In this document: positions 1,260-27,702 of the stretch, piece after piece | How positions within the stretch are numbered: position 1 is the stretch's first letter | Layout: each line of letters begins with the position of its first letter | Source of the DNA: Candidatus Woesebacteria bacterium RIFCSPHIGHO2_02_FULL_42_20 | GTDB taxonomy: Bacteria > Patescibacteriota > Microgenomatia > UBA8517 | Length of the DNA stretch: 62,999 nucleotides | NCBI GenBank assembly: GCA_001792535.1 | Contig: MGGS01000014.1 | Location: 1-62,999 of the forward strand | Reading direction: 5' to 3' | Notes under the pieces: model-generated | Database searches by the model: none | What the model was told of the DNA's origin: nothing | What the model saw: only the letters and a program-made list of their open reading frames with translations | Translations under genes and position numbers: made by a program

Positions 1260-2552
1260 TTATTTACTTTTAATTTTCAACTTTTTCAATACCCACAACA
1301 AGGGTATTAAAAAATTAACAATATTGCCTATTACTACAATATAAGCTGCCCCAAGAACTCCGTAAAGCGAAATTAAATACAACCCACCAACTACCGTGAT
1401 CGTAAGGTGGACAAGCGAAAGCCAGAAGAAAAGTCTTGGATAGCTGAAGTAATAAAAAACCGCACTGTGTACAGGAACCGAAATAAGGAAAATCAATTCT
1501 CCCAAAAAAAGAATCACAAAGATAGGAATTGATCCCAGGTATTCACTACCAAAGACATAAGGCACTAAAAATGCCACGATAGGTATTGTGACAATACCCA
1601 AAAAGGCAACTCCAAGTATCATTATTTGAGTTTTTTTTAAATACTTTACAAAAACCTCTTTATTTCCCATTGAAGCCATTTTTGGAGAAATTACAGTGCC
1701 CATAGCTACAACAATTTGGGGAATAATAACTGTTAACTGGCTTGCCGCTGAGTAAAGTCCGACTTCAAAGGCAGACAGCAACCGAGCAGAAATAAACGTG
1801 TCTAGCCTGGAAGAAACAGCTGCAACCAAAGTGAAAGCCGCAACCCATTTGTTATAATGAAAAAACTCAGCCCCAACAGACATTTCTTTATCCACTCTCA
1901 AAAATTTCTTAGGCAGTATAGACATACCGACCAAAAAACCCAAAAATGGCGTTGCTATATAGACTGTAAGCGTACTCGTAAGATTAAAAATGCCAAAAAC
2001 TAGAAGTATTATAATTATAACGACGCGCACGGCATTGGTTCCAATTTGAATACCACTCCACGCCCAAAATTTTTGCATTCCCTGTAAAGCATGAGTAATA
2101 AATGAAAAAAACAAAAAACCGCCCACCCCGAAAAATGCCAGTCTTAGAGGATTGGTGAGTTCAACCTTCTTAAATAACAAGAGCGCAATTTGGTCTGAAA
2201 AAACGAACCCAACGCCAAGCACTATTAACCAGACCATAAGTTTTATTTTTAGACCCAATTTTAAGAAACGGTAGGCTTTGAAAGGTTTCTTTTTTATGTT
2301 TCTCCCGACAAAATTAACCAACCCTGTATCGGTTCCTAAATCTCCGATATCGGATATTAAAGTAAGAAGTGTGATTGTAACCATCAAAAGACCGAAACTT
2401 GCAGGCCCAAGAAATCGTGCAACGAGAATATAAAACACCGCCCCGAGAATTCCGTTTATCGCTGTACCCAAAAAAGTTATAGCCGACTGATGAAAGGTAG
2501 CTGACTTTAGCGAAGAGAGGATACTATAACCAAGCCTAGCTATTTGCCCCAT
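1260..2552 (-). CDS. MOP-superfamily (Wzx-like) oligo/polysaccharide flippase
   Basis: About 430 aa that are almost entirely hydrophobic helices (12-14) with no soluble domain, in a polysaccharide-locus context. The track start at 2558 is TTG; I prefer the ATG at 2550-2552. Confidence 0.65.
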   Translation of the reverse strand: MGQIARLGYSILSSLKSATFHQSAITFLGTAINGILGAVFYILVARFLGPASFGLLMVTITLLTLISDIGDLGTDTGLVNFVGRNIKKKPFKAYRFLKLGLKIKLMVWLIVLGVGFVFSDQIALLLFKKVELTNPLRLAFFGVGGFLFFSFITHALQGMQKFWAWSGIQIGTNAVRVVIIIILLVFGIFNLTSTLTVYIATPFLGFLVGMSILPKKFLRVDKEMSVGAEFFHYNKWVAAFTLVAAVSSRLDTFISARLLSAFEVGLYSAASQLTVIIPQIVVAMGTVISPKMASMGNKEVFVKYLKKTQIMILGVAFLGIVTIPIVAFLVPYVFGSEYLGSIPIFVILFLGELIFLISVPVHSAVFYYFSYPRLFFWLSLVHLTITVVGGLYLISLYGVLGAAYIVVIGNIVNFLIPLLWVLKKLKIKSK

Positions 2553-2559
2553 TGCCAAA

Positions 2560-5262
2560 TTATACCCGCATCAGCCGTTTATATACCAGGAAAGTCACCA
2601 TAAGCACACCTACCCAACCAAACAACAGGCCCGGTAACACATACTTTTGAGGTGTAAAATAAACGTCGTACTCACCATTCTCCGCTACCATAAACCCATT
2701 TACAAAGCTATATACCGGATACGCGCCTACATCGTTCATTGTCCAAAGAGGATCAAAGTTTTGAGAAAATACCAATAAACTTTTATCCTCAAGACCCGTA
2801 ACTCTAACTTTAAAGTGTGTCGGAGAAACGGGCGTGTAGTCAACCTCTCCACTATTTTTCCCCTCAAAAAGACTTTTTTGATCTAATTCTGAAATTTCAT
2901 CCCATAAAACCACAGATGCAGCTGCTGCTTTCCTCTTTGCTTCGTCCCAGAGATTCTTTGGGATAACACCGAGCGCATTTACTACGTTTATATTTCCCCG
3001 GGTCTCGATTTGCAATTTCCCCATCGAAGTGACCTCCCCAACTTCACTCCACTCCACATTTCCTTTATCGTATTCTAAAAACTTGTCGGGGGTATCTTTA
3101 TAGCCGGCAAGTTTTCTGACTACTTTTGATGGCTTTTCTAGCTTTGTATTTACTTGCCCTATTTCATTCCCGTCTACACTAAAACGCAGTATCCCCCCTT
3201 GACTACTCAGAAGAAATCTTGCAATAAGAATACAATCACATGATTTAGTAATATTATAAACGGTACGCGATGTCGCCCCTTCGGCTACCGCCCACCCACC
3301 CCCATAATCAAAATCGGTATTTTCGATTTTGTATTTTGACTCTAAAAAGCTTCTCCATGTCAAAAAATCTCCGGTTTCTCTCTTCCACCACCCGGACCCA
3401 TCAGGTGAAAAGTCAAGAGTTCTTGACGGAAACAGAAAATAGTCCCTGCCTAAAAAAAACGCGGCTACGTCAGTAAGATTTTTTTGATACGCTACTATTC
3501 GAGCGTCATCCCCGGTAAGAATTTTTTCGTCCAATAACCCCTCTTCCAAAAAAATAAATGAGGATTGTTTAAAACTCTCCTTTGGTACTTGACCGTAGAT
3601 CTCGTCGGACCCTATTACAAACCAAGGCTCTTGGGTCAAGAAAAATAAATCCTCATGTTCTCTAGTTTTTAATATTAGTAAGTCTTCCTTTCTCTCACTC
3701 CAACTCACCCAAGGTAAATCCGCAAGTTGATCAGAAAATACCTCATAATACTCTGAATCGCTTTTGGAAATAGGTTTTGTATACAGGAGATTTGCAATAG
3801 AGCTAATACGCAAAAACTCATCAACCTCCGGGTAATCCCGTAAAAAATTAAAAAGCTCATAAGTCCCAACCACGCCAATACTAAAAGGGCGCTTAACGGC
3901 CAGCAACGTTGCCTCGGTTAAAGGATGTTTATGATCGGCAAACGCAAATGGATGACGGAATGGCATCCAAAGAGATCTGGAATATTTTTCACCATTCAAG
4001 GAAATGTTTTTTATGTAATCAATTTTTATATTGCTCTGAGGTATCCTCAAAAGTCCTGTCATTTTATCTGACCAGGCCGGATAAAGAAGGACCGACCAAA
4101 TACCTAATACCGATAAAAACAGGCAGATTCTAGCTGTTTTGGTTCGAACCTTAGAAAGAATCCAATCTACACTAAACCCGGCCAGAACACTATAACTAAT
4201 ACCCACCATGAAGAAAAATTTTGTCGAGTCGCGAAACAACGAAAAGCCCGGAAAATTGGTAAAAAGCCATTGATACACCGTGCCCAGTGGAGGACTAACT
4301 CCCTTGGCTAGGAAGACACCACTTAACGCTATAAGTGTCCAAAACCCGACCGACTTACCCTTCTTGATGACAAAGATAGGTAAAAAGGCAAGAAGCGGGA
4401 AAATTACAAAGTAAAATAACACCCCAGTAACTTGGCCGAAAATATTTTGAAACCAATGAGGTGTAATAAAAAAAAGTGCATGGCCAAGTGTTGTAAAGTT
4501 TAAAAATGACAGTTGAGTAACCCTGCCGTAATTTGAAGGCAGTAACGGTGCTCTGGCAAAAATCGCGGGAAGTAACCAATAAAGGTGCAGGAAAAAAAGA
4601 AAACTTGTAGTAATAAATCCAAGTTTAAAATATCTTAAAATCACCTTTCCTCTTTGTTTCTGTACAAGATCAAAAATAAATTTTATAGATACCAAAACGG
4701 CTAAAATATACAGGAAGCGAATATCGGAAATTGAGATGAAAGCTACGACAAGAGCGAACTTAAATGGTGCATTTGGTGAACTTTTATCCATCACTTCCTT
4801 CAAAAAGTAAAAGGCAAGGGGAAACAGAGAATAAGCAAGGGCAATAGATAGCTGACCACCGTCGATGAGAAGGGCAAGATAAGAATTTGCCAAAAATACA
4901 AGTTGCCCGACAAAGATTCCGACCCCTTTAATCCCAAAATCTTCTAAAAGTTTGTGGATCCCGATACATCCAATTACAAATGTCGGAATAATAAAAACAC
5001 CAAGAGTGATCACCCAAAATGGCAACCCTATCAGCGAAAGTAAACCTATACCAAAGTCGAGTGGCCAAGACCAAAGAGTATCAACTGCATAATAGCCCAT
5101 TCCCTCCGACCCCCTTGTCGACCAGACTTGCGGAAGTGAAATATTTTCTTTAAGTGCTTCAGGATAAATATTTGGGAAGTCATGCCCGATATGTATTCCC
5201 GGAAAAAAGATAGTCCAAAATAAAAAAACTGTAAAGATAAGAGAAAAATACCTGCGAACCAT
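2560..5262 (-). CDS. large polytopic membrane protein, GT-C-like (YfhO/DUF3367-like) with C-terminal extracytoplasmic domain
   Basis: 900 aa. About 13 hydrophobic segments fill the first ~400 aa, followed by a ~470-aa soluble region and a final TM helix (LLFGWVGVLMVTFLVY). It shares the FRDSTKF motif (nt 4216-4236) and a C-terminal VNGFMVAENGEYDVYF pattern with ORFs 5772-9224 and 25654-27702. Confidence 0.55.
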   Translation of the reverse strand: MVRRYFSLIFTVFLFWTIFFPGIHIGHDFPNIYPEALKENISLPQVWSTRGSEGMGYYAVDTLWSWPLDFGIGLLSLIGLPFWVITLGVFIIPTFVIGCIGIHKLLEDFGIKGVGIFVGQLVFLANSYLALLIDGGQLSIALAYSLFPLAFYFLKEVMDKSSPNAPFKFALVVAFISISDIRFLYILAVLVSIKFIFDLVQKQRGKVILRYFKLGFITTSFLFFLHLYWLLPAIFARAPLLPSNYGRVTQLSFLNFTTLGHALFFITPHWFQNIFGQVTGVLFYFVIFPLLAFLPIFVIKKGKSVGFWTLIALSGVFLAKGVSPPLGTVYQWLFTNFPGFSLFRDSTKFFFMVGISYSVLAGFSVDWILSKVRTKTARICLFLSVLGIWSVLLYPAWSDKMTGLLRIPQSNIKIDYIKNISLNGEKYSRSLWMPFRHPFAFADHKHPLTEATLLAVKRPFSIGVVGTYELFNFLRDYPEVDEFLRISSIANLLYTKPISKSDSEYYEVFSDQLADLPWVSWSERKEDLLILKTREHEDLFFLTQEPWFVIGSDEIYGQVPKESFKQSSFIFLEEGLLDEKILTGDDARIVAYQKNLTDVAAFFLGRDYFLFPSRTLDFSPDGSGWWKRETGDFLTWRSFLESKYKIENTDFDYGGGWAVAEGATSRTVYNITKSCDCILIARFLLSSQGGILRFSVDGNEIGQVNTKLEKPSKVVRKLAGYKDTPDKFLEYDKGNVEWSEVGEVTSMGKLQIETRGNINVVNALGVIPKNLWDEAKRKAAAASVVLWDEISELDQKSLFEGKNSGEVDYTPVSPTHFKVRVTGLEDKSLLVFSQNFDPLWTMNDVGAYPVYSFVNGFMVAENGEYDVYFTPQKYVLPGLLFGWVGVLMVTFLVYKRLMRV

Positions 5263-5263
5263 T

Positions 5264-5800
5264 TTATTTATGATCAGGTTGTCTAAATCGCCAAATATAA
5301 ATAACTAAGCGCAACAGGACAAAAAGTGCAGTAATCTCTAAAAGTCTTCCTGCCAGTCCCGAATGGTTAACCAAATAAAAAAAGGCCGAAGCGACCAATA
5401 GAAACAGGAAAACCCCAAGCCACACAAATTCTCCGACTTTAACTCTTTTAATAAATCCCAAATAAACCAGATCTTTCACCATGCCTGTAATTAATAACAA
5501 TAACATAATATTAAAAGCAAACTTTGAAAATTCAACGGAAACTATAAATGTAACAACCCCAACCAGATAAGAAACTGTCGCAAGCTTATAGAAAACTTTT
5601 ACGCTTATCTTAAACTTGTAAATTGCAATAAGCATTAAGTACAAGATAACCATATAAAAATACGGTAAGACGGATGCACTTGAGCTTACAAACAGCAAGT
5701 ACAGCTTGATAACCAAAATACAGACCACAAAAACAACTCCAACTACCCACAAAAAAGGGGTGGCGAGAGTTTTACTTAGTGAAATAAGTCTTTTTAGCAT
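5264..5800 (-). CDS. small integral membrane protein, function unknown
   Basis: About 178 aa with 5-6 hydrophobic helices. The track start (5812) is TTG. The ATG at 5798-5800 overlaps the upstream gene's end by 29 nt. I recognise no motif. Confidence 0.5.
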   Translation of the reverse strand: MLKRLISLSKTLATPFLWVVGVVFVVCILVIKLYLLFVSSSASVLPYFYMVILYLMLIAIYKFKISVKVFYKLATVSYLVGVVTFIVSVEFSKFAFNIMLLLLITGMVKDLVYLGFIKRVKVGEFVWLGVFLFLLVASAFFYLVNHSGLAGRLLEITALFVLLRLVIYIWRFRQPDHK

Positions 5801-8800
5801 AAATAAATACAATGAAAGTTAAAAAGACAAATAGGGAAATTACAGAAACAGTTCTTCCAATTAAAAGAACTTTTTCGTCTTGAAACTCAACAACCAGTGT
5901 ATAGTTTCCCAATTTGTCCAAATACCAACCGTTGGCAAATCCGTCGATTAACACATGCTCACCCTCCAATTCCAATGCCTCATCACCTTTAACCTTGATA
6001 CCCCATGACGGGTGAAATAACTGTCTAAAGACCAAAAGATACGGAGTTGTAGCATTTTGAATTTCAACTTCCCAGGAGGAGGAGTTATGTTTTTTAAAAG
6101 TGATATCAGGCGGCACCATTTCGCTTGTCTTTGACTCCTCATTTACAAGAATCAGGCTGTCAAGAAATAATCGCTCAACCCGCAAGTTTTTAACTTCGAC
6201 TTCGACAGGTTTTTCGAATCTGTTCCTATAAGTAATGTCGTCGCATTTAAAGCTCAAGAAAAAATTTGACCGCGGGCAAAAATCAAATTTAGTAGCACCA
6301 AACTCAACCCACGCCCGGGATGATCCGCGGTTTGGGCTTACAGTTGTTTCATAATGTTTCCAATAGTGATCATAACCATCTATTGATATTGTTGAATTTA
6401 TTCTTTGCCTTTCTTCTTCAAGCTTCTCAATATTTAAATCATCTACAATATTTACTGAAAATTTATCCCCTTTCTTAATTAAATAATCAAAAGCTACTCT
6501 ATATGTCGAGTAAGGATTAAAATTATTAATTTCAAATCTGGGGTGATTATCCGACGAGACATTTACCGTTTCTTGCAAGGGAACATCCACTAAGTTTAAA
6601 AGCATGGGAATTGGTATGCTAATTTCATGGTCTCCGGCGGCAAAATAAAAAGATACAATCTTAAGAAAGTTATTATCGACTTGTGGCTCAAGGGTAAGGG
6701 GTTTTCCATCAAGAGCTATCTCCCAAATTTTTGGGTACTCGTAAGTGCCTTTAGAGTCAATTCCGTAGAGATTAACCGTATAATCTCCTTTGTTTTCCAC
6801 ACGAAACTGGTATATTCTCGAAGCCTCGGATAAACCAACCGTTATCGGGTAGAAACTTCTTAAACCCATGATTTGTAATTGTCCGCTCATGTAGGATTCA
6901 AACGTTAACAATATCTTCTGATTTTCCAAACTTGATTCTTTTTGAGCACTTGAAAGTATTACAAAATGTTTATTGAACATTTCGATAAAAAGATCTTTCA
7001 TAAACTGTTCTCGACCCGACTCGCTTATAATTTCGTCGCTTAACTTCGAGAGAAAGTCCTTGTATCGTTCTACTGCCAGTTCTAAAGTCTCCTTACTATC
7101 ATTTTTGACACCGTCAATTTCTATCATGCGTTTCCCGAGTGTTTGAAGGTCATAAAGGAGCCTCGCTGAACTTTCAGTTAAAGCCATTCTTTCAATGGAT
7201 TCCTTAAGAAGAATTAGTGGATAAAGTCTATTTGTCGGCAAAAAACGTATAGCTGGTAGCTGGGCTCGCGCTTGGTCAATATTTATCTGGCGACTAGGGT
7301 TTAGTTGAAACTGTCTAGTTGGACGAAGTATCCTGGCTGAAACATACTTTTCCACTCCTGAGGACACCGGGTTAATTACTGCGACTGTGTCTATATCAGG
7401 ATAAGTGTGTATCTTGTCAAAGAATACATCTCTACCATTTTGCACTGCCACAATGTCATTAGGTGCAGAAAATAACGGAACAAAATACTTGTTTGAAAGT
7501 TCATAAAAGCGCAAATCTTCAAATTCACGCGAGAGTGTAAGATCTCCTTTTTCGACTAAAGCTTCAACATAATCTTTTACTATCCCCGGGTCTCGCATAC
7601 CGCGACGAGAATAATCAATATCCCGCCTTAGCAAAAAATATTTCGAGCTTAGTGTCCCGAGTAAATTTGGAAAAACTTCCGTATTTTGAAAAAGAACCGG
7701 TTCAAGTGTACTAGTGATAGGTTCAAGGTAGGGTACAGAGGTAGAAAAAGAGATAAAAGGAGTAGAAAACAACTCACTTGAAAGTTCCACTCCATTGAAG
7801 GGACGATCCCAGGAATATGTCATCCCTTCCCCGTCTATGGGTAGGGCAACGACCCTGAACCCTTCCCCGAGGGTGGAAAGCCAATTGTCTGCATCTTTAT
7901 AAAAAGAAGGTACTTTTATATAACTAGTTATTTTGTCTTGGTTACCTCCAAAAACCTCTCCGTTCCACATCGGTAATACATAGTAAAAAAACAAAACAGA
8001 CGAGACTAAAATTACTAACGCGTACTTTAGGAGAGAAACTTTGGAGGCAAGAAATTTCGCGATCATTGATAACCCAATGCCGAAAAGAATAGAATATGCC
8101 AACATCAAGGCAAAACCAGCCTTCTCAAAAGGATTACGAAAAACTTCAAGCAAACGGATATTAGAAAAGGAAAACAAAGTAATATTACCCAGGGCGTCAC
8201 TTACACCCTTTGATAACATAAGTACAAAAACCGAAAATATTAGAAAGTACTTAAAGAGCGAACTTTTTTTTCTCTTAAATATTGAAAGCAAACACACCGC
8301 TCCCGGGATGAATCCAATAATTTGAATGACGGGGTTTAAGTAATTGATACCCCAAGTGCTCCCTATTTGATCAATAAAAGACTTATCCAGCAGTCTTAGG
8401 ACAAAAGGCAGCCCACCCACGGCTTGACTAACTGAAACAAAGGATTGAATATTTCCCGTTTGAGTAACTGCTTCAGTAGATGCGTAAGGTGTGGCGAAAG
8501 TCGAATACATTGTCGGGAAAAACCACCAGGCATGAAAAAGTACCCAGAGGATGATGGTAATTCCGAAGTACTTCGTAGAAAAAAGCAAATTCTTTTTAAC
8601 GTGCTTTAACACGTTAAACATTACAAAAGATATAAGTGTAATAAACCATAATATCAATAACGGAAAAGAGGCAAAACTTAAAGAAAAGGCTACGCTGCTT
8701 GCCACTACCAAAAAAGCGTATATGTACTTTCTCGCGGTAATCCCTTTTATGAATAGAAACAAAGATAAGGGGTAAAGCGCATAAAAAAACATGAAAGTAT

Positions 8801-9224
8801 ATTGAAGCCTATTGACGACCGTCACCATGGTAAAAGGATTAAAAATATAAAAGACAGACGCGAAAAACGAGGCAAATTTGTCTTCACTTACGAGACAGGC
8901 TAATTTATACACTGAGACGCTACCTACCGCCAAAACAAAAAAATAAAACATTGCTTGAATAACTACCGATGACATACCGGCGTGAGAAAGCAGCCCAATT
9001 GTACCTAAGAAAATGATGCTAACAGTATTTGAGGGAGACCCAAGTAATGCATCGCTCCACTGGTGAAAGGTTCTCGGTATCAGCCTTGCAAAATTGTGGA
9101 ATGGCAGCCCGGACTCACCCGAACCAACCATAAACCCATCCTTGAACCAAACAAAAATTAAACTTAAGCAAAGAAAGACAATCACACCCATTTGGAATAT
9201 CGGATGTGTTAAAACTTTCTTCAT
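5772..9224 (-). CDS. giant polytopic GT-C-like protein (AftD/DUF3367-like)
   Basis: 1150 aa. An N-terminal ~425-aa polytopic domain carries VWFKDG and FRNPFEK (nt 8121-8141). It is followed by a ~690-aa soluble region and a terminal TM helix. From memory it resembles the family annotated alpha-(1->3)-arabinofuranosyltransferase/DUF3367; this was not verified by HMM. Confidence 0.55.
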   Translation of the reverse strand: MKKVLTHPIFQMGVIVFLCLSLIFVWFKDGFMVGSGESGLPFHNFARLIPRTFHQWSDALLGSPSNTVSIIFLGTIGLLSHAGMSSVVIQAMFYFFVLAVGSVSVYKLACLVSEDKFASFFASVFYIFNPFTMVTVVNRLQYTFMFFYALYPLSLFLFIKGITARKYIYAFLVVASSVAFSLSFASFPLLILWFITLISFVMFNVLKHVKKNLLFSTKYFGITIILWVLFHAWWFFPTMYSTFATPYASTEAVTQTGNIQSFVSVSQAVGGLPFVLRLLDKSFIDQIGSTWGINYLNPVIQIIGFIPGAVCLLSIFKRKKSSLFKYFLIFSVFVLMLSKGVSDALGNITLFSFSNIRLLEVFRNPFEKAGFALMLAYSILFGIGLSMIAKFLASKVSLLKYALVILVSSVLFFYYVLPMWNGEVFGGNQDKITSYIKVPSFYKDADNWLSTLGEGFRVVALPIDGEGMTYSWDRPFNGVELSSELFSTPFISFSTSVPYLEPITSTLEPVLFQNTEVFPNLLGTLSSKYFLLRRDIDYSRRGMRDPGIVKDYVEALVEKGDLTLSREFEDLRFYELSNKYFVPLFSAPNDIVAVQNGRDVFFDKIHTYPDIDTVAVINPVSSGVEKYVSARILRPTRQFQLNPSRQINIDQARAQLPAIRFLPTNRLYPLILLKESIERMALTESSARLLYDLQTLGKRMIEIDGVKNDSKETLELAVERYKDFLSKLSDEIISESGREQFMKDLFIEMFNKHFVILSSAQKESSLENQKILLTFESYMSGQLQIMGLRSFYPITVGLSEASRIYQFRVENKGDYTVNLYGIDSKGTYEYPKIWEIALDGKPLTLEPQVDNNFLKIVSFYFAAGDHEISIPIPMLLNLVDVPLQETVNVSSDNHPRFEINNFNPYSTYRVAFDYLIKKGDKFSVNIVDDLNIEKLEEERQRINSTISIDGYDHYWKHYETTVSPNRGSSRAWVEFGATKFDFCPRSNFFLSFKCDDITYRNRFEKPVEVEVKNLRVERLFLDSLILVNEESKTSEMVPPDITFKKHNSSSWEVEIQNATTPYLLVFRQLFHPSWGIKVKGDEALELEGEHVLIDGFANGWYLDKLGNYTLVVEFQDEKVLLIGRTVSVISLFVFLTFIVFIYAKKTYFTK

Positions 9225-10815: not shown

Positions 10816-11865
10816 TTAACTCGCAAAAACTTCGTGAGCAATTTTGTGGGTTGGGAGAACCTGATTCTTCACGACTTGTAATACATTTCCCTTAATCATC
10901 ACCCTGTTAAAAATGTATTTATCCGATGACTTTCTGATTTCGGCCACCTTTCTCCTTTCTCCAAGGATATATCCGATATTGCCCAAAATCCAGAGCCAAG
11001 CCTTAAGGAATCCTTTCAACGGGAGAGTGTTTCTTTTAAGAATTAGGTGCTTGACCGCGCGGAGCAAATAGATAACAAAAATCCAGGGTAAGTAGTGAAG
11101 CAGGTTAACAAACTGATAGTTTTTAATAAAAACAGCAGGCATTTTGTTAAAATAATACTCTGCTTTAATTGTTGATATCGGCCTTGCAGCTTGAGGCTTC
11201 CCTCCCCAATGGTAAGTTACAGCCTGGGGTACACAAACCGACCTGAACCCTGCTATCCATATTCTCCAACCCAGATCAATGTCGTCAACTTTGTGTCCCA
11301 ATTTTTCATCGAATCCACCGATTTTGTCCAGAATAGCTTTCCTTACGATTGTACCCACTGATCCAATAACTACATTGGCAATTGAATCATCTGCTTCATT
11401 TATTGTCAGGCCGTAATTTCTCATTACAACCCACCCAGTATGGGGAATAAGAAGCATCCCATCGGCTTGAATATATGCTTTTCGCTTTAAGTCAAAAACC
11501 CTGCTGTGACAGGCACCGATTCCTGGTTTTTTTTCAAGTACTCTAACCATTTGACTTATCCATAGAGGGGAAGCTTCCATGTCCGTCTCAAAAAAAACAA
11601 CGTACTTACCTTCGGAATTTTTTACACCAACGTTACGCGTAATAGAAGGGCCGCTGTTCTTTTCGTTAAACAAAACCTTCAGATTTTTGTATTTCCGGGA
11701 AAAACCCAATAATACTTCTCTCGCGCCATCGGTCGACCCGTCGTCAACAATAATAACTTCATAATTTGCGTACCGGGTCGCCACTATGGATTTTAGACAA
11801 GAGCTTATTAGCTCCTTCCTGTTATAGTTTGGGATAACAATCGATACAAGAGGAACGTTTCCCAT
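10816..11865 (-). CDS. glycosyltransferase family 2 (membrane-anchored)
   Basis: 349 aa with VSIVIPNYNR, IIVDDGSTDG, an ETDMEA acidic motif, IGGFDEKL and C-terminal hydrophobic helices. It is a clear paralog of 14421-15419. Confidence 0.85.
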   Translation of the reverse strand: MGNVPLVSIVIPNYNRKELISSCLKSIVATRYANYEVIIVDDGSTDGAREVLLGFSRKYKNLKVLFNEKNSGPSITRNVGVKNSEGKYVVFFETDMEASPLWISQMVRVLEKKPGIGACHSRVFDLKRKAYIQADGMLLIPHTGWVVMRNYGLTINEADDSIANVVIGSVGTIVRKAILDKIGGFDEKLGHKVDDIDLGWRIWIAGFRSVCVPQAVTYHWGGKPQAARPISTIKAEYYFNKMPAVFIKNYQFVNLLHYLPWIFVIYLLRAVKHLILKRNTLPLKGFLKAWLWILGNIGYILGERRKVAEIRKSSDKYIFNRVMIKGNVLQVVKNQVLPTHKIAHEVFAS

Positions 11866-11866
11866 T

Positions 11867-12538
11867 TCAATTATCCTTCCAGCAAAACATATAAATTGCC
11901 CATTCAGGCTTTAGAGCAAGCATGGGCCAAAAAATAAATGATACTAGAGAAAATATATAACTGATAGGCCCCAATTTTCTAACTCGGTTTCCATAACCGT
12001 AAAGAATTCTCGCACCTTGTCCCCAAACTTTATAACCTTTTTCTTTGAAGTCTCTCGGATACCAGGCCGACAAGTGTTTTTGATAAGGGTTGCCATCATA
12101 CGGGTCTTGGGGCAACCCACCCACAGGAATAATAAAAATAATCCTTCTTTTGGCTATATTTTCCAAATTAGCAATCAGTTTTAAGCCTTCCCTTCTAGTC
12201 AAGTGTTCAATTACTTGTGAACACAAAACAATGTCAAACCTACCAATGCTTTCATCTAGGTTTTTAATGTCTTTTTTTACCAATCTTTTATAAATTTTTC
12301 TTGTCTTTGCTTTCTTTAAATAAGGTTCAAAAATATCTACCCCGGTCGGGATTTTATTTTCTTTGGAATTTTTAATAATAAATTCCATAAAAGCGCCATC
12401 AGCACAACCGACATCAAGTATAGTCTCGCCATGACCCCTGACCAGCCTCATAACCAATCCATAGTGGGTAAAGGGCAAAATCGCGTATATCGGGGCAAAA
12501 AAGGCATCTACTTTTTTAAGTATTGGTCTCCAGTCCAT
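11867..12538 (-). CDS. class I SAM-dependent methyltransferase
   Basis: 223 aa with ILDVGCADGAF and QVIEHLT. It is a paralog of 15412-16062; both share the HLT..G..L..I..R.II..P and GY.V.G.GAR strings. Confidence 0.8.
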   Translation of the reverse strand: MDWRPILKKVDAFFAPIYAILPFTHYGLVMRLVRGHGETILDVGCADGAFMEFIIKNSKENKIPTGVDIFEPYLKKAKTRKIYKRLVKKDIKNLDESIGRFDIVLCSQVIEHLTRREGLKLIANLENIAKRRIIFIIPVGGLPQDPYDGNPYQKHLSAWYPRDFKEKGYKVWGQGARILYGYGNRVRKLGPISYIFSLVSFIFWPMLALKPEWAIYMFCWKDN

Positions 12539-12540
12539 AA

Positions 12541-14424
12541 CTATCTAGTTAACCAAAATTTAGATTCTTTACTGATTTCCGACCAAATATTTACCATATC
12601 CTTATAAGGGCTAATGTCCATATGCCTCGAGTCTTTATCAATAAACCTTCTCATCAAAGCCTTTAACATAACGAAAGAAATCGACTCAGCAAGTAAATCT
12701 TTGTTAATTTTTTTGGTATCACAAAAATAACCCCAGATTGTTTTCATTATCTTTGAGTAAACTCCAACGCCCTTTAAGTTCTCTCTAAAATAATCCCAGC
12801 TTTCCCGTCTACTATTATTAATAATAAAAAAAATAAAATCAAAAAAAGGATCTTTTTCTTTCTCAAAAAACTCCCAGTCGATAACATAAATTTTTTTGTT
12901 GTCAATTATTATGTTTGTTTTTACAAAGTCCCCGTGACTGGCCACTTTTTTTATTTTTGTTTCCCCCATTTTCTTTGTGAATAATGCCAGATCCGAAGCA
13001 ACAATTTTTTCAACCTTATCTGTAAAATTTTGTGATCTTAAAAAACCTACTGCGTTTGACATCTCTTTCTCAAATATTCGGGAATCGACTAGCCCGCTTT
13101 CGGTCTTTGTCTGAAACTCAAGTAACCAGCTAACCGCAAGCTCATTGTCTTCAAGACTCAATGATCTACATGTGTGACCCTTAAGGTAAGGCTCAAGAAA
13201 CACATCCCTATCTCCCACCTTAGTCTTCTTGATATTCATCCCATTCCATTTGGCAACTAGAGCTTCCTCCCTAACAAGACTTTCCTGGAACTGTGAAAAA
13301 CGGGCAAACTTAACTACACTCTTGGCTTGCCCGTTTTCAAGTAAAAAATAGTTTATTTTAGAGGTTAACCCATGTGTACCACTTCTTCTTAAAAAACTTG
13401 TTTGCTTTTTACCCAGGCTCAAAACCCGACTTTCAAACAAATCTTTTTTGCTTCCACCTTCTTTATTTGCGTAAATTAAAAAACTCGGTGCAAATATCGG
13501 GAAAAACACTCTTAGTAACCTTGGCCGAAATAGTAATGCTAGCTTTGTCGCAATTTTGCTGGTTATCGTCACGCTGAAATCATGCATTCGCAAAAAATTC
13601 AACAAAAAAGAAAAACTCTCCCCGTCCATTGGTCCTGCCTCACTTGGACTGTTGTAATTAAGGGTCCAATAAATTTTAAAACCGAAAAATCCCGCTTCTT
13701 TCATAATATTTTGATAACCCCAGTAAGAGTAGGTATAAGTTCGATAATCGGACCAATCCAAGCCCATCCTCTTTGTATCTTCATATTTTCCCCCCGTATT
13801 TCTAAACTTTCTGACTAAAACACTTGCCAACCTCCTCGGCATTAAACTTGTGAAAGGAAGCCCACTATGATCAATTGCTCCAAAAAAGAAAAAAAAGGCA
13901 AATCTGTTCTCAATTCCGATATATAACACTCCCCCAGGTTTTAATACTCTTTTCACTTCTTGAAGAAACTTTATCTGAAGTTCTTTCGGATTTTTATTGA
14001 AATCCGAAAGGCCAATCCATTCTAGTACTCCGTTGACTACGACTAAGTCGAAAAAGTTATCAGGAAACGGTAAGGTTAACCAGTCGGACTGAATAAATTT
14101 TATATTTGTCCGACCCTCTTGCTTCGCCCGAACTTTTTGAAACTCAAGGCGCTCTTTTACCAACTCAAGAGAATAAACATCGTCAAACTGGTAAGAGAGA
14201 GAAATTGAATTGGCACCCCATCCGCTACCAATATCCAGAGCCTTATCCCTGCCTTTCAAATTCAGGCAGTCAAAAAGCCAATCTGCCCGATCATAAGCTA
14301 AAATATACTCGTTTAGTCTATTCACTCCTAAAAAATTTGCGGCATTCTGGTAACCAATTCTTTTGGCGACTTCAACAATTTGCCGCGCTTTATCTTGTGG
14401 AATTTCTCCCCAATAATAACTCAT
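12541..14424 (-). CDS. bifunctional SAM-methyltransferase / APH-type kinase fusion (WbdD-like architecture)
   Basis: 627 aa. Residues ~55-175 form a methyltransferase (ALDIGSGWGANS, VVNGVLEWIG, LKPGGVLYIGIE). Residues ~340-560 form a kinase-like fold with the HGDFVKTN catalytic loop (nt 12913-12936) and IDWE (nt 12871-12882). Confidence 0.7.
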   Translation of the reverse strand: MSYYWGEIPQDKARQIVEVAKRIGYQNAANFLGVNRLNEYILAYDRADWLFDCLNLKGRDKALDIGSGWGANSISLSYQFDDVYSLELVKERLEFQKVRAKQEGRTNIKFIQSDWLTLPFPDNFFDLVVVNGVLEWIGLSDFNKNPKELQIKFLQEVKRVLKPGGVLYIGIENRFAFFFFFGAIDHSGLPFTSLMPRRLASVLVRKFRNTGGKYEDTKRMGLDWSDYRTYTYSYWGYQNIMKEAGFFGFKIYWTLNYNSPSEAGPMDGESFSFLLNFLRMHDFSVTITSKIATKLALLFRPRLLRVFFPIFAPSFLIYANKEGGSKKDLFESRVLSLGKKQTSFLRRSGTHGLTSKINYFLLENGQAKSVVKFARFSQFQESLVREEALVAKWNGMNIKKTKVGDRDVFLEPYLKGHTCRSLSLEDNELAVSWLLEFQTKTESGLVDSRIFEKEMSNAVGFLRSQNFTDKVEKIVASDLALFTKKMGETKIKKVASHGDFVKTNIIIDNKKIYVIDWEFFEKEKDPFFDFIFFIINNSRRESWDYFRENLKGVGVYSKIMKTIWGYFCDTKKINKDLLAESISFVMLKALMRRFIDKDSRHMDISPYKDMVNIWSEISKESKFWLTR

Positions 14425-15419
14425 TGGTAGTACCTTCTGTAAATAGTTACAAGACTTTCCTTAGTCATTACTTTCTCATAAATGTAGCCATCATTAACAA
14501 CTCTTAAAGATTGTACAAATTTTCTTCGCTTTAGTGTATCTCGGAAATTAGCGATATTCCATATTACCGCTTTAATAAATTGACTAAATGCGCTAAATTC
14601 TTTGTCTCGAACAACAACAACGACACCCCTTGCAAACAAAATCAAAAATGCCATTGGCAAATATTTGATTAAACTTTTTAATTCATAATTCTTGATTAAG
14701 GTCCTAAAAGTATTTTTATTTATATGAAAATATACAAAACTTTTCGTTGCATTCATCAGTCTTGCACGTTCTTCGTAACCTTTAGACTTATGATAAACGA
14801 CAGAGGCAGGAACATATATTATTTTCCATCCTCCAATCCAGATCCTCCACGAAAAATCCAAATCCTCGGTGTGAACAGCCAGTTTTTCATCGAAACCACC
14901 AATTTTTTCAATTACTCCTTTCCTCACGGCCATACAAGCAGATATTGAAATCACTTCGCGTGTCTTTTCTCCTTTTAAGGCAATACCCCAACCTGTATGG
15001 GGAATCAAAAGCAGCCCCGCTGTAGTAATCCTGCTTTTATCTTGAAGCATTGGCATCTTGGGACACGTCGCACCCACGGCTGTGTTTTCAAAAGGCTTCA
15101 AGAGCTCGTTGAGCCACCACGTTTCAACTTCCGTATCGTTATCCAAAAAAACAATTATTTCACCTATTGCCACCTTAATGGCACGGTTTCTGCTTGCCGC
15201 AGCCCCGATATTCATTTTGTTTCTCAAAAGCTTAATCTTCTTAAATTTTTTTAAATATAATTTAATTACTTTCAGGCTTTCGTCGTATGACCCGTCATCT
15301 ACTAAGATAACTTCAAATTTCTGATACTTAGTCTTCATAAGGCTGGACAAACAAAGAGGCAAATACTTCTCACCGTTATAATTTGCAATAATAATGGAAA
15401 CCTGTGGTTGTTTATTCAT
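14421..15419 (-). CDS. glycosyltransferase family 2 (membrane-anchored)
   Basis: About 332 aa with VSIIIANYNG, ILVDDGSYDES, LDNDTE and IGGFDEKL. The track start at 15422 is TTG; an ATG follows immediately at 15417-15419. Confidence 0.85.
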   Translation of the reverse strand: MNKQPQVSIIIANYNGEKYLPLCLSSLMKTKYQKFEVILVDDGSYDESLKVIKLYLKKFKKIKLLRNKMNIGAAASRNRAIKVAIGEIIVFLDNDTEVETWWLNELLKPFENTAVGATCPKMPMLQDKSRITTAGLLLIPHTGWGIALKGEKTREVISISACMAVRKGVIEKIGGFDEKLAVHTEDLDFSWRIWIGGWKIIYVPASVVYHKSKGYEERARLMNATKSFVYFHINKNTFRTLIKNYELKSLIKYLPMAFLILFARGVVVVVRDKEFSAFSQFIKAVIWNIANFRDTLKRRKFVQSLRVVNDGYIYEKVMTKESLVTIYRRYYQ

Positions 15420-16062
15420 CAAAATCTTTCACGGCAACTAAGTAGCCTGCAATCCGGGGGAAAAAATATGAAATCGGGGTGAGAATATACTGTAAAGCAA
15501 AATAAAACTTTACCTGCCAGAGAGCTCTCGGCGGATAGACCCTGGCACCAAAACCATAAACCCTATAACCGAAACGCTTAAAATCATCTGCTCCCCACTT
15601 TGAGTGGTGGGAGTCGCTTTTGACAAACTCCGGCTGACTATGTTTCATCATGTTCGGACAGACAATAATCGACCGGCCCCGGCAAATCTTATCAAGATCG
15701 CCTAAAAACTTTTCTCCGTTTTTTTTAGTAAGATGAGATATCACTTCAACTGCAAGAATCAAGTCTACGCTTGACTTGACAAAGGGCATTTTATCTAAAC
15801 TCGCAACTACATACTCGTCGTAGACGCGATTTTTTTTAGCGATTGTCAAATATTCATCAGAAACATCAACACCTATCATTTTTGCCTTTGATGTATCCCT
15901 GGTCGCACGTATCAAAAACCCATATACCCCTTTTCCGCAACCGACATCAACAACAACCTTAGCGAACAAATCATGAGGAATAAAATTAAATACAATCGGG
16001 TGGTGGAAAAAAGGTGATATTCCCGCCCACTTAAACTTATTTATTCTTGAACTTTTATTCAT
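15412..16062 (-). CDS. class I SAM-dependent methyltransferase
   Basis: 216 aa with VVDVGCGKGVYG and VEVISHLT. It has an ATGA overlap with the upstream gene. Confidence 0.8.
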   Translation of the reverse strand: MNKSSRINKFKWAGISPFFHHPIVFNFIPHDLFAKVVVDVGCGKGVYGFLIRATRDTSKAKMIGVDVSDEYLTIAKKNRVYDEYVVASLDKMPFVKSSVDLILAVEVISHLTKKNGEKFLGDLDKICRGRSIIVCPNMMKHSQPEFVKSDSHHSKWGADDFKRFGYRVYGFGARVYPPRALWQVKFYFALQYILTPISYFFPRIAGYLVAVKDFDE

Positions 16063-24383: not shown

Positions 24384-25669
24384 AAATTTTTCACAAGATC
24401 GGCAACTTTCTCCCCCAATTCTACTGCATAATTAGTACCCCGATCGTGGGGATAAACTTGCTGAATATTTGCCAGGAACACACCGTTAATGGGGGTCTTA
24501 ATTGGTGGAATTTTCTCTGAATAGTTTGTAGCCACAACCGGCTGGGCAAAAGCAGTTTTAAATAGCCAATAGTCATTTATCATTGATCTTTTAAACTCTG
24601 GGTTAATTTTTTTAAGATAGGGTATAAAAATTTTTAATAATTCCTCTTTGTTCTTTGAAAAATAGTCGTGATCATGCGACAAATAGTTGCCTATATAGAG
24701 CAAGTGCTCGCCGTTGTAAAATTTATTATCCATATAATTAGTGTGTTCAACCAAAGCCAGAAACGGATAACTCCTGTCATTAATATTCAACCAGTAAGTG
24801 TTGTCTTCAAAGAACTTTTGCTTTAGTGACAAAATTAAATTTATCGCACCCAATCCCGGTAAACCTGAATAGCTATTTTTATAACTTTCCGGAATTCCGT
24901 GAGTCATTTTTATAAAGACGGTAGTTGGAAGTGTACATATTACTTTGTCAAAATAATATCTTTTACCAACACCCGTTACAACCAATATCCTGCCTTTTAT
25001 ATTTCTAAGAGATTCAACCACCGTATTGTAATGAAACTTAGCATTCAAAATCCTTAATTTTGACTCTATTTTTTGAGCAAAATTTAAAAATCCTCCAGTT
25101 GGGTAAACAAGAGAAGAAGTCCTTTTTGAAATTCTGGACCAAAACCAAGAAGCGCAAATTAAGTCCGAATATTCGCCGAATTTTCCTTTAAAAAGGGGCT
25201 CCCACAAAACCTTCCAAGAAGATGTGCCCATAACTTTTTTTATGAAACCACTTGCCGAAATTTTCTCAAACGGCTTCCAGAAAGGATTAAAACGAAGCAA
25301 CGCTATCCCAACACCGGTTCTAATTCTATCTAAAAATGGTATCGGACTAAACCTCAGAAGACTCATTGGCGAGTCCGTTTGATAAATAACACAGTCGAAA
25401 AAAGTCGATGTTTTGGGCCTTTTTGTAATCACTCTATGCTTTAACTTTTTAGCAAGATTGATTACATGAGTGTCGTTAGTGAACCAATGATGATAATGCT
25501 GCTCTAATGTCCACTTCCAATTCTTTCTCTTAAATCCACCCGCAAGTCCACCAGGACTACTTTCTTTTTCAAAGACCACTACTTTATCCCCTCTTTCGGC
25601 AAGACATAGAGCCGCTGAAAGCCCTACAAACCCTGCGCCGATAATTCCCACTTTTATTCCCATGGCCAT
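24380..25669 (-). CDS. FAD/NAD(P)-binding oxidoreductase (amine-oxidase / UDP-galactopyranose-mutase-like superfamily)
   Basis: 429 aa. The N-terminal Rossmann motif is VGIIGAGFVGLSAALCLAERGDKVVVFEKESSPGGLAG. HHWFTND and LVEHTNY strings are reminiscent of the mutase/oxidase group. Substrate is unknown. Confidence 0.6.
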   Translation of the reverse strand: MAMGIKVGIIGAGFVGLSAALCLAERGDKVVVFEKESSPGGLAGGFKRKNWKWTLEQHYHHWFTNDTHVINLAKKLKHRVITKRPKTSTFFDCVIYQTDSPMSLLRFSPIPFLDRIRTGVGIALLRFNPFWKPFEKISASGFIKKVMGTSSWKVLWEPLFKGKFGEYSDLICASWFWSRISKRTSSLVYPTGGFLNFAQKIESKLRILNAKFHYNTVVESLRNIKGRILVVTGVGKRYYFDKVICTLPTTVFIKMTHGIPESYKNSYSGLPGLGAINLILSLKQKFFEDNTYWLNINDRSYPFLALVEHTNYMDNKFYNGEHLLYIGNYLSHDHDYFSKNKEELLKIFIPYLKKINPEFKRSMINDYWLFKTAFAQPVVATNYSEKIPPIKTPINGVFLANIQQVYPHDRGTNYAVELGEKVADLVKNL

Positions 25670-27702
25670 ACTTTAAGAATTAAATCAATATAAAAATCTC
25701 CTTCTCTTTCTACCAACCAACCATTAGCGAAGCCGTTTACCAAAAAGTGGTTTTGAACCGATTTACCATCTGTTTTGGCTTTCCAGAGGTCACTATAGGT
25801 GTTGGTCAAAACCAAAATGAAATTTCCCCTCGACCCAATTACCCGTACTTTGTAATTCCTCGGGCTTATTTTTTCAAAACTAATCCCCGGCGTCCAGTTA
25901 CTTAGTTTCTTGTCGCTGTCTGTAGCCACAAAACTTAAGGGCTCAAAATTACGATCTAGCATAATCTCCATAGTTTCGTTTGAATCGCGTGCAAGTTTTA
26001 TCTCTGATACAGCATAAATACGAGGCACAACTTTGTTTTTATCCAAAGAGTAAATTTTAATTAACCCTATTTCTTTTTCAAATTTCAGATCGTGCCACTT
26101 TTTAATGTTTTCCTCGGTTATATCCATTCCTGCTTCATTTGCCCAAGATGCATCCACGTCTTTGTGAAAAATAACATTAGACACGCCTGTTGCATATAAG
26201 ATATTGCTAAATTTTTCTTGGTCCAGGTAATGCTTTAATGCCAGGTAAAAATCATCAAAGTACCGCGAGGTCCGAAGTGACTTAGATATAGACTCCCTAT
26301 CAAAGATAAACTCGGATGGTTCCAAGCCCCGATAGCCCCAACTATAGCGAATCCCGTCACCGTTTAAAAAAGGCAAATGAAATAACCTTTCACTCCCAAA
26401 GCTGTTTAAATAGGCATTCGCTGATTTATAATAATCCGGTACCTGAATCTTGACCGACCCGCTTATGAATTTACCTGTCCAAAAAGGCCAAACAAGTACC
26501 AAAGTGATAATCAATATTATTTGTGCTAATATCTTCGATAGTCTGTCTCGCTTAAATAAATAAAAGTATCCCAAGGCAAAAAAGATTGAATACGGGATTA
26601 GTATAATAAGCCCAAATTTCTCAAACGGATTCCTAAAAACGCCCATGAAAGGGAACACATTAAACAGAGTGGAAAAGAACTCTTTACCAAAAGGCGGATT
26701 TAGTCCTTTAACAAAAAATAGCGATGCTACAAGTATAAATAGCAAATATTTGTGAATTTTTGCCTTTCTGCTGACCGAAATACCCAAAATTACAACTGAC
26801 AAAACAGTTAAACTCAAAATCAAATATTTCGCTTCCCCATAAAAGCTCCACAAAGAACCCAAATTATCACCAAAATAACCTTCACGCAAAAAAATAATAC
26901 TATCGAACTTGAAAAATTTACTTAGGCCGGCTAAAACCGAAATACTGTCATTCGGAGTAGCTTGTTTGGAAAACGATTCCGAACTTAAAATCATGTAAGG
27001 AATAAGCCACCAAAAATGAAAAACAGCCCATATAAATCCGCTTAAAAAAAACGATAATATTTTTTTAATCACATTTTTTACCCTAAATACCTCATGGAGA
27101 AAAAATACCACCGAGGGAAACCAGATGGTAATAATATACGATGGTGCACCGTAAGCTATGGGTACTATCAAAGACACGCAAGAGGCAGCCAAAGCGTACC
27201 TGATACGGCTTTCGCGAACAAATTTTATTTGAAAATAGGTAAATACTGGCAGGACCGCCCAGCCTGCAATCTGTGTATACAAAAACCTCCCCCAAATCTG
27301 GATCAGACTGTATAAATTAAAAACATAAAAAACAGCAGCCACAAAGTACAAAACCTTGCTTTTATAGTTTTGTCCAAGAAGTTCTTTGGCCAAAAAGTAA
27401 AAGCCAATTAACCCAAGAAGCAAAAAGAAACATAGTAAAATTGCCTGAGTCAGCCAGTTGGTTATCCCAAGATTAACAAATACGCCAGCCAAGGAGTAAA
27501 ATGACAATCTTGGAAGATTAACCGGCAACAAATATCCAGTGCCTGTTTGGTACCAAGCCGAAGAGTACAGATATTGTGTTCTCTTGGGCTCAAACAAAGT
27601 TATACCCTCTTCTCCAGTCGCCATCATTTTTCCATCCTTAAACCAGATAAAAACCAAAAATACCGCGACCCAAAAATATAGATGTAACACTCGCTTGCTC
27701 AT
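25654..27702 (-). CDS. polytopic GT-C-like protein (AftD/DUF3367-like), shorter paralog
   Basis: 682 aa with IWFKDG, FRNPFEK (about nt 26617-26637) and C-terminal VNGFANGWLVEREGDF. It is a clear paralog of 5772-9224. Confidence 0.55.
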   Translation of the reverse strand: MSKRVLHLYFWVAVFLVFIWFKDGKMMATGEEGITLFEPKRTQYLYSSAWYQTGTGYLLPVNLPRLSFYSLAGVFVNLGITNWLTQAILLCFFLLLGLIGFYFLAKELLGQNYKSKVLYFVAAVFYVFNLYSLIQIWGRFLYTQIAGWAVLPVFTYFQIKFVRESRIRYALAASCVSLIVPIAYGAPSYIITIWFPSVVFFLHEVFRVKNVIKKILSFFLSGFIWAVFHFWWLIPYMILSSESFSKQATPNDSISVLAGLSKFFKFDSIIFLREGYFGDNLGSLWSFYGEAKYLILSLTVLSVVILGISVSRKAKIHKYLLFILVASLFFVKGLNPPFGKEFFSTLFNVFPFMGVFRNPFEKFGLIILIPYSIFFALGYFYLFKRDRLSKILAQIILIITLVLVWPFWTGKFISGSVKIQVPDYYKSANAYLNSFGSERLFHLPFLNGDGIRYSWGYRGLEPSEFIFDRESISKSLRTSRYFDDFYLALKHYLDQEKFSNILYATGVSNVIFHKDVDASWANEAGMDITEENIKKWHDLKFEKEIGLIKIYSLDKNKVVPRIYAVSEIKLARDSNETMEIMLDRNFEPLSFVATDSDKKLSNWTPGISFEKISPRNYKVRVIGSRGNFILVLTNTYSDLWKAKTDGKSVQNHFLVNGFANGWLVEREGDFYIDLILKVWPWE

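Follow-up and report, generated by a model that had tools for sequence, protein, structure and literature searches.

What does a protein that joins a methyltransferase to a kinase do in a glycan locus, and is it related to the known enzymes with the same pair of activities? This question is raised by an open reading frame (ORF) on the minus strand, at positions 12541-14424, of a 62,999-nucleotide (nt) stretch of DNA from Candidatus Woesebacteria bacterium RIFCSPHIGHO2_02_FULL_42_20 (contig MGGS01000014.1, positions 1 to 62,999), which is referred to below as the window. A preliminary description, made from the sequence alone, had called the encoded protein "WbdD-like", after the Escherichia coli enzyme that makes a methyl-phosphate cap (PMC3482155). 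The analysis reported here shows that the protein has two intact catalytic modules, that these modules are paired in nearly all related loci, that the gene family resides in glycan loci of the Wzx type, and that there is no kinship with WbdD. As the best explanation of the whole we propose, tentatively and with a confidence that comes close to even without reaching it, that the protein phosphorylates a glycan, likely methylates the phosphate, serves a pathway with Wzx export, and has converged with WbdD.

A gene with two catalytic modules

The ORF starts with ATG and encodes 627 amino acids (aa) followed by a stop codon. Its start codon overlaps, as ATGA, the stop codon of the upstream gene for a GT2 glycosyltransferase (GT), while the downstream gene begins 2 nt past its own stop codon; therefore, it lies inside a long operon on the minus strand. 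The ORF is real, since an orthologue of 626 aa with 87% identity is present in Candidatus Woesebacteria and hundreds of homologues share its architecture. In agreement with the preliminary description, the ORF listing of the window, the Pfam matches, and the AlphaFold2 (AF2) model all indicate one polypeptide composed of an N-terminal S-adenosylmethionine (SAM) methyltransferase and a C-terminal kinase, and the positions given there for three motifs (ALDIGSGWG, HGDFVKTN, and IDWE) are exact. The gene and its parts are as follows:

12541-14424, minus strand: whole ORF, methyltransferase-kinase fusion (full-length AF2 model with a predicted local distance difference test score, pLDDT, of 92 and a predicted template modeling score, pTM, of 0.91)
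13429-14424, minus strand: extended class I SAM methyltransferase module, aa 1-332 (from Pfam, alignment, and stand-alone forms)
14215-14241, minus strand: SAM-binding motif I, ALDIGSGWG, aa 62-70 (alignment and motif scan)
12544-13428, minus strand: APH/choline-kinase-type kinase module, aa 333-627 (profile, AF2, and Foldseek)
13297-13317, minus strand: VVKFARF, aa 370-376, strand beta3 with the putative ATP-binding Lys372 (AF2 secondary structure)
12913-12936, minus strand: catalytic loop HGDFVKTN, aa 497-504, with H497, G498, D499, and N504 invariant in 39 homologues
12871-12882, minus strand: IDWE, aa 515-518, a choline-kinase-like motif in which the metal-binding Asp516 and W517 are invariant

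Because of the high pLDDT and pTM of the full-length model, the two domains are predicted to pack as one rigid body. No membrane segment was found in the linker (aa 285-320), part of which is a beta strand of the fold, and the whole protein is free of hydrophobic segments, its highest 19-residue Kyte-Doolittle average being 1.49. A Foldseek search with the full-length model gave single-domain methyltransferases (template modeling score, TM, of about 0.25 against the query) and no solved structure with the two-domain arrangement. Since this search was dominated by matches to the methyltransferase domain, the kinase was modeled alone. Likewise, single-sequence phmmer against PDB sequences matched methyltransferases only, and profiles were used instead.

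The N-terminal module consists of a Rossmann core (aa 45-175) with the glycine-rich motif I, as expected of a class I SAM methyltransferase, and of a strongly conserved, family-specific lid (aa 176-270). Pfam assigned aa 63-169 to Methyltransf_11 (PF08241; E = 8.6e-19), and Foldseek indicated a resemblance to 3mgg and 1xxl at E of about 1e-9. In an alignment of 39 full-length homologues (A1), residues D64, G66, S67, G68, G70, D185, Y227, T231, Y237, and W253 are invariant, and lid residues R174, H186, and R197 are nearly so. The same module is also encoded on its own, as a protein of about 350 aa, in other genomes. NCBIfam offered no specific family, with generic methyltransferase matches lying far under their cut-offs. 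Profile matches to phosphoethanolamine N-methyltransferases (PMT; 4iv8 and 5wp5) were confined to profile positions of about 100-211, that is, to the SAM-binding core, and covered neither the substrate-binding lid nor the catalytic Tyr/His dyad of these enzymes, which places the module outside the PMT family. Both the window protein and its 87%-identical orthologue lack the N-terminal zinc ribbon (CPxC...CxxC, Trm112-like) of the family consensus, and both open directly at the conserved YWGEI of alignment A1 (nt 14424 in the window).

The C-terminal module was matched by Pfam APH (PF01636) at aa 492-549 with E = 1.7e-4 and 21.9 bits, which for this single sequence is below the cut-off of 23.2. 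Its identity as a kinase is nevertheless firm, because the family profile matches LicA and the AF2 model matches APH/choline-kinase structures. When the kinase-family profile (A2, aa 333-627) was compared with all PDB sequences, the best match was LicA (4r77, E = 9.6e-10), followed by the APH domain of ACAD11, by macrolide, spectinomycin, and hygromycin phosphotransferases, and by ribulosamine kinase. The kinase-only AF2 model had a pLDDT of 94, and its 50 best Foldseek matches were all of the APH/ChoK/YtaA type (E from 2e-8 to 1e-6, TM 0.45-0.6), including YtaA, APH(2''), choline kinases, LicA, macrolide phosphotransferase, and methylthioribose kinase. A precomputed PF01636 match was found in 47 of the 120 best homologues, and a Pfam Choline_kinase match in two homologues. 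Thus, the H-x-D-x4-N loop and the metal-binding Asp of I-D-x-E that mark APH/choline kinases (PF01636/PF01633) are present together with a significant profile and fold match, and D529, downstream of IDWE, is invariant as well (39 homologues). In the N-lobe, where the alignment is loose, K372 lies at the end of the strand formed by aa 366-374, and E386/E387 lie within helix alphaC (aa 377-394) of the AF2 model; the K372 column holds Lys in 23 and Arg in 9 of the 39 homologues, and E386 is Glu in 24 of the 39. VVKFARF aligns with IVKF of LicA, in a stretch of the alignment that is not significant. Of the residues whose conservation the preliminary description had put forward as a check, the SAM-binding set (D64, G66, S67, G68, and G70) and, in the kinase, H497, G498, D499, N504, and D516 are intact and invariant across the 39 homologues.

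Comparison with WbdD and Klebsiella O7 ORF6

The comparator was WbdD of E. coli HS (NC_009800), a protein of 708 aa encoded in the O9 rfb cluster between wzt and wbdA (locus L008, 7967-10093). It consists of a methyltransferase (residues 1-210), a Src-like kinase (211-459), and a coiled-coil region (460-708) (PMC3482155). WbdD of E. coli O9a/Klebsiella O3 is represented in the PDB by the 4AZS series. RefSeq labels this genuine WbdD merely as a "class I SAM-dependent methyltransferase"; name-based searches miss proteins of the WbdD type because the annotation omits the kinase and the coiled coil. In both WbdD and the window protein, an N-terminal class I SAM methyltransferase is followed in the same polypeptide by a kinase of the protein-kinase-like superfamily, and both genes lie in a surface-glycan locus; the domain order given in the preliminary description was therefore right (PMC3482155).

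The comparison of the sequences and folds gave a different picture. With hhalign, the family profile A1 matched WbdD with a probability of 6.9% over 46 columns around SAM motif I only, and the kinase profile A2 with a probability of 1.3% over 25 columns, where HGDFVKTN...IDWE was placed over WHDDVRPWN...IDFG. BLASTP against WbdD gave no match (E >= 3.4), and WbdD was absent both from all 37 PDB sequence matches of the kinase profile at E <= 10 and from the 50 best Foldseek matches of the kinase model. The kinases differ in type: that of WbdD is Src-like, with H-x-D...DFG, whereas that of the window protein carries HGD...IDWE and belongs to the APH/choline-kinase type. Moreover, the window protein is devoid of the accessory features of WbdD, which are a coiled-coil ruler of about 250 aa, a membrane helix, a docking site for WbdA, and an exporter composed of Wzm and of Wzt with a carbohydrate-binding module (CBM). 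The 109 aa between IDWE and the C-terminus form the ordinary helical C-lobe of the APH fold in the AF2 model, and hence the protein lacks a long coiled-coil ruler, as had been noticed before. Accordingly, neither homology, nor a Src-like kinase with DFG, nor a ruler, anchor, or docking region, nor a Wzm/Wzt-CBM exporter links the protein to the WbdD family. The kinase models as an enzyme of the choline/aminoglycoside type with no specific similarity to WbdD, and the term "WbdD-like" had to be abandoned as a statement of kinship. The resemblance to WbdD is best read as convergence, not descent.

In the methyltransferase of WbdD, phosphate is held by R203, H132, and H133 (PMC3482155); no equivalents of these residues were identified with confidence in the window methyltransferase. 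Residues E135/W136 (LEW after strand 4, where WbdD has His-His) were considered as an argument against a phosphate acceptor, and this argument was dropped, since LEH/LEW is generic in Methyltransf_11.

A second comparison could be made with ORF6 of Klebsiella O7, a methyltransferase-kinase terminator that has an APH-like kinase, makes methyl phosphate, and is unrelated to WbdD (PMC11231755). Because the kinase of ORF6 is APH-like, an APH-like fold alone is compatible with methyl-phosphate chemistry, and the functional analogy with WbdD appears to be strengthened by this precedent. The Klebsiella pneumoniae protein has 1,414 aa, with a CBM, a coiled coil, and two GT2 modules, and works in an ABC-transporter pathway; its kinase of 223 aa is not recognizable by sequence (PMC11231755). 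In contrast, the window protein has no CBM, coiled coil, or GT2 modules, and its kinase of 295 aa is recognizable. It is thus a member of neither the WbdD nor the Klebsiella O7 ORF6-N family, being set apart from the latter by architecture. What appears to be new here is a third, independent lineage of methyltransferase-kinases, separated from ORF6 by the described architecture.

Pairing of the modules and their link to Wzx flippases

A word-indexed search revealed at least 735 homologues of the window protein, nearly all of them unnamed or annotated as "methyltransferase type 11" or "UbiE", and HMMER run over 1.84 billion cluster representatives gave 1,244 clusters at 50% identity (E <= 1e-30). 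Relatives were found in 186 genomes among GTDB species representatives. The bacterial carriers comprise Woesebacteria, other Patescibacteria, Chloroflexota, Acidobacteriota, Gemmatimonadota, Armatimonadota, Zixibacteria, Caldithrix, and Omnitrophota, and the archaeal ones Nitrosopumilaceae, Nitrosocosmicus, Methanosarcinaceae, and Thermoplasmatota.

The pairing of the two modules was followed in 84 non-redundant loci of GTDB species representatives. The methyltransferase and the kinase are plainly fused in 38 of them. Longer forms occur in 19 loci, 16 of which have a C-terminal match to the kinase profile and two a kinase in the adjacent ORF, with no kinase detected in the remaining one. A stand-alone methyltransferase of about 350 aa is encoded in 27 loci, and in 21 of these its gene directly adjoins a separate kinase gene of about 300 aa, the two genes being 0-24 bp apart in 20 cases and 123 bp apart in one. 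Hence, the two modules occur together, fused or adjacent, in about 77 of the 84 loci, and because they are almost always fused or adjacent, this constitutes strong comparative evidence that the methyltransferase and the kinase would act in one pathway. The modules are unequally conserved: the mean pairwise identity is 52% in the methyltransferase core and 46% in its lid, and 26% in the kinase, only the catalytic segment of which reaches 46%. In one locus, on a 1.09-Mb ENA contig (L006, 10001-12002), the gene is split into pieces of 528 and 145 aa, probably by a frameshift or an assembly error, and lies among sulfotransferase, APS kinase, and C5-epimerase genes, the context of a sulfated, heparosan-like glycan.

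The gene neighborhoods pointed to Wzx-type flippases. A Pfam scan of the 119 genes located within two positions of 36 fused genes revealed Polysacc_synt/Polysacc_synt_3 (Wzx) as the commonest family (14), followed by GT2 (12), GT4 (11), methyltransferases (9), and Wzy_C (5), with ABC_tran not among the top 25 families. When the census was widened to 150 genes lying three to five positions away from fused genes, in both directions, more GTs, methyltransferases, and sugar-nucleotide enzymes came up, and NTP_transf_3 four times; again, ABC_tran was not among the top 25 families. For the detection of Wzx in related loci, single-sequence phmmer was insensitive (1-2 matches), and it was replaced by an iteratively built hidden Markov model. 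This model revealed Wzx in the available flank of 23 of the 38 fused loci, at a distance of at most 211 bp in 16 of the 38. The motif of the ATPase of ATP-binding cassette (ABC) transporters was found in one of the 38. In at least 15 of these loci the wzx gene lies immediately upstream, on the same strand and with a gap of 0-136 bp; such loci come from Chloroflexota, Acidobacteriota, Zixibacteria, Caldithrix, Gemmatimonadota, Methanosarcinaceae, and bacteria of the candidate phyla radiation (CPR). Furthermore, a natural fusion of Wzx, methyltransferase, and kinase exists in a protein of 1,086 aa (P0103), whose N-terminal part of about 430 aa is Wzx; it is encoded on two contigs (L001, 2865-6125, and L002, 125-3385), beside a Wzy_C gene. 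One archaeal locus (L004) has nonulosonic-acid genes around the methyltransferase-kinase gene and carries Wzx and AglB/STT3 in its flanks; in another locus (L005), only the nonulosonic-acid genes were seen. As judged from these neighborhoods, a methyltransferase-kinase pair appears, for the first time, to be associated in both bacteria and archaea with the Wzx route, and not with ABC exporters. In a thaumarchaeal locus (L007, 7899-9611), a gene for a PF04185 phosphoesterase (phospholipase C/acid phosphatase family) lies directly upstream of the methyltransferase-kinase gene; PF04185 was found in three of the 119 scanned neighbors, and such an enzyme could remove or process the phospho-group after export.

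The window itself, in which 50 ORFs were scanned with Pfam, contains a very large glycan locus with about ten GT2s, four GT4s, at least seven small class I methyltransferases, and genes for short-chain dehydrogenase/reductase and dehydratase enzymes. The features that surround the methyltransferase-kinase gene are the following:

14421-16062, minus strand: upstream pair in the same operon, composed of a small methyltransferase gene (15412-16062) and a GT2 gene (14421-15422)
10816-12538, minus strand: downstream paralogous pair, composed of a small methyltransferase gene (11867-12538) and a GT2 gene (10816-11865)
1260-2558, minus strand: nearest gene for a Wzx-type (MOP) flippase (Pfam)
41062-42351, minus strand: second gene for a Wzx-type flippase (Pfam)

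The two flanking pairs are paralogous, their GT2s being 35% identical (E = 6e-70) and their methyltransferases 29% (E = 3e-25), and the gene order with methyltransferase-GT2 pairs is kept in a relative of 45% identity (locus L003). The link of the window gene with Wzx is thus one of the locus, not of adjacency. The preliminary description had placed the gene among Wzx-like flippases and GT-C enzymes with no Wzm/Wzt in view, and both statements were borne out. Besides the two Wzx-like genes, several GT-C genes were found. In turn, a six-frame scan of the window revealed no Walker A or LSGGQ motif, Wzt and Wzm of E. coli HS had no match in it at E <= 10 when used as phmmer queries, and no ABC family appeared in the Pfam scans. 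The membrane glycosyltransferases of the GT-C type (2560-9224, 25654-30109, and 57252-61233, all on the minus strand) are unusually many for a small CPR genome and recall the assembly of actinobacterial arabinan and mannan outside the membrane. The set includes two AftD-like enzymes, at least three PMT_2, and a weak PTPS_related match (2560-5262) below the Pfam cut-off.

A possible function in the assembly of lipid-linked glycans

How, then, might the two modules work together? We picture the protein as a cytoplasmic enzyme, soluble or peripheral, whose two active sites would help to build a cell-surface glycan while it is attached to a polyprenyl carrier. Its choline-kinase/APH-type domain would use ATP to phosphorylate a hydroxyl on a sugar of the polyprenyl-linked oligosaccharide, and its SAM methyltransferase would next methylate the product, most likely on the new phosphate, yielding a methyl phosphodiester. 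The unit modified in this way would then leave the cytoplasm through a Wzx-type (MOP) flippase and be put to use on the outer side of the membrane, where the GT-C enzymes of the locus are possible users. In our view, the enzyme likely has a lipid-linked glycan of a Wzx-type pathway as its substrate; that its product is a methyl phosphate is possible and falls somewhat short of probable. We infer the glycan acceptor, the order of the reactions, and the transfer of the methyl group onto phosphate. The phosphate is favored as the methyl acceptor because the kinase is variable (26%) and the core and lid of the methyltransferase are conserved (52% and 46%), a pattern that fits a kinase reading a variable sugar and a methyltransferase reading a constant group such as phosphate.

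The same considerations bear on the chain-length mechanism suggested in the preliminary description. Wzx flips short completed units. Since the protein has no ruler and its family is tied to Wzx, such a mechanism is not supported, and the group introduced by the enzyme would be a decoration or a completion mark on a finished unit, not a measure of polymer length.

Several observations weigh against this proposal. The immediate neighbors of the gene, both in the window and in its closest relatives (L003 and L009), are methyltransferase-GT2 pairs, not Wzx, and the nearest wzx gene of the window is 10 kb away. The best solved sequence relative of the kinase, LicA, is a small-molecule (choline) kinase. 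Many O-, N-, and C-methyltransferases are equally good matches to the Rossmann core of the methyltransferase, and for this reason the module offers no diagnostic residue for phosphate methylation. Finally, we know of no methyl-phosphate glycan from any organism carrying the gene pair, and a literature search for methyl phosphate in archaeal N-glycans gave nothing relevant, as did one for CPR glycans.

The likeness to LicA leads to a different route, in which the kinase would act on free ethanolamine or choline, a PMT-like methylation would follow, and the head group would be activated, transferred to the glycan, and checked by the flippase. LicA of Streptococcus pneumoniae (4R77/4R7B) shares with the window kinase the fold, the HxD...N loop, and the choline-kinase-like IDWE...D at an identity of about 17%. 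The Choline_kinase matches in two homologues and the presence of phosphoethanolamine methyltransferases among the Foldseek matches of the methyltransferase favor this route as well, and the near-obligate pairing of the modules fits it equally well. A flippase check of this kind is also on record, since TacF, a pneumococcal MOP flippase, monitors phosphocholine on teichoic acid precursors (PMC13385700). However, LicA acts on small molecules as a separate protein in concert with LicC and LicD, whereas the window kinase comes with a specific methyltransferase, fused or adjacent, and LicC/LicD partners are not enriched in the neighbor censuses of the fused loci: LicD is outside the 25 commonest families of both, and of the four NTP_transf_3 genes among 150 wider neighbors, at least some are likely CMP-nonulosonate synthetases, as in L004 and L005. 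In the window, the Pfam scans matched neither LicD nor a nucleotidyltransferase (cytidylyltransferase) of such a route, and the PMT matches cover the generic Rossmann core only. Moreover, a constant small substrate predicts equal conservation of the two modules, and the observed identities are 26% in the kinase and 42-52% in the methyltransferase. In view of these findings we consider the head-group route rather unlikely.

A second alternative, to which we give a similarly low probability, holds that the two modules make independent decorations of the same lipid-linked glycan, the methyltransferase O-methylating a sugar hydroxyl and the kinase phosphorylating another position, with the fusion merely co-localizing them. 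The glycan-locus and Wzx context agrees with this too; the at least seven other small class I methyltransferases encoded beside GT2s suggest a heavily O-methylated glycan, and the methyltransferase core resembles the sugar O-methyltransferases RebM and AtmM as much as others. On the other hand, pairing in about 77 of 84 loci across phyla is hard to explain for independent steps, and the strong conservation of the lid among organisms that must have different glycans argues for an acceptor group that stays constant.

It is very improbable that the kinase acts on a non-glycan target, such as an antibiotic or a protein, or is a mere binding module whose location is incidental. The best Foldseek matches of the kinase do include phosphotransferases for aminoglycosides and macrolides as well as the spore-coat kinase-like YtaA, but the gene sits in a tight operon with an ATGA overlap with the GT2 gene, its glycan/Wzx context is shared by bacteria and archaea, and fusion to Wzx has been observed; the invariant catalytic residues, in turn, speak against a pseudokinase. 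The least probable reading, which can hardly be sustained, is that of a true WbdD relative capping the non-reducing end and setting chain length: the shared domain order, the intact catalytic sets, and the glycan locus agree with it, but kinship was refuted by hhalign, BLASTP, the PDB and Foldseek searches, and the HGD...IDWE kinase type, and the absence of a coiled coil, of Wzm/Wzt in the window, and of an ABC ATPase motif from all but one of the 38 related loci stands against it too.

Returning to glycan phosphorylation followed by methylation of the phosphate, the resemblance to TacF lies in Wzx-type transport that would depend on a phospho-substituent added in the cytoplasm, while the decoration and the enzymes adding it differ. 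By analogy, such logic would explain both the conserved pairing of wzx with the methyltransferase-kinase gene and the natural fusion. To our knowledge, few decoration-dependent flippases of the Wzx type have been described, TacF being one. It is conceivable, though doubtful, that methyl phosphate serves as a "finished" tag on the lipid-linked glycan, read by the neighboring or fused Wzx. Equally speculative is the extension of such tag reading to a checkpoint common to bacteria and archaea, including archaeal N-glycosylation; this checkpoint would be the counterpart of the WbdD cap read by Wzt-CBM in ABC pathways and of the TacF/phosphocholine system.

The matter bears on how Wzx-type flippases recognize a complete lipid-linked unit. 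If the methyl-phosphate tag is true, it would extend a mechanism known only from enterobacterial ABC-transporter pathways for O-antigens to the Wzx route and to archaea, would represent a third independent origin of the enzyme pair, and would predict that uncultured CPR bacteria and ammonia-oxidizing archaea have surface glycans with an unusual substituent. If it is false, there would still be a large unannotated pair of glycan-tailoring enzymes, now reduced to "methyltransferase type 11".

Three further observations concern other genes of the window. An ORF of 514 aa (47795-49339, minus strand) encodes a VKOR domain (aa 8-132) fused to a dihydroorotate dehydrogenase (aa 200-497); this combination is unusual and might link pyrimidine synthesis to a membrane quinone/thiol redox module. 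Just beyond the glycan locus, an AbiEii-type nucleotidyltransferase toxin domain (type IV toxin-antitoxin/abortive infection) is encoded at 47155-47793 on the plus strand. Two paralogous Ser_hydrolase (PF06821) genes lie about 6 kb apart on the minus strand, at 45791-46342 and 52300-52833.

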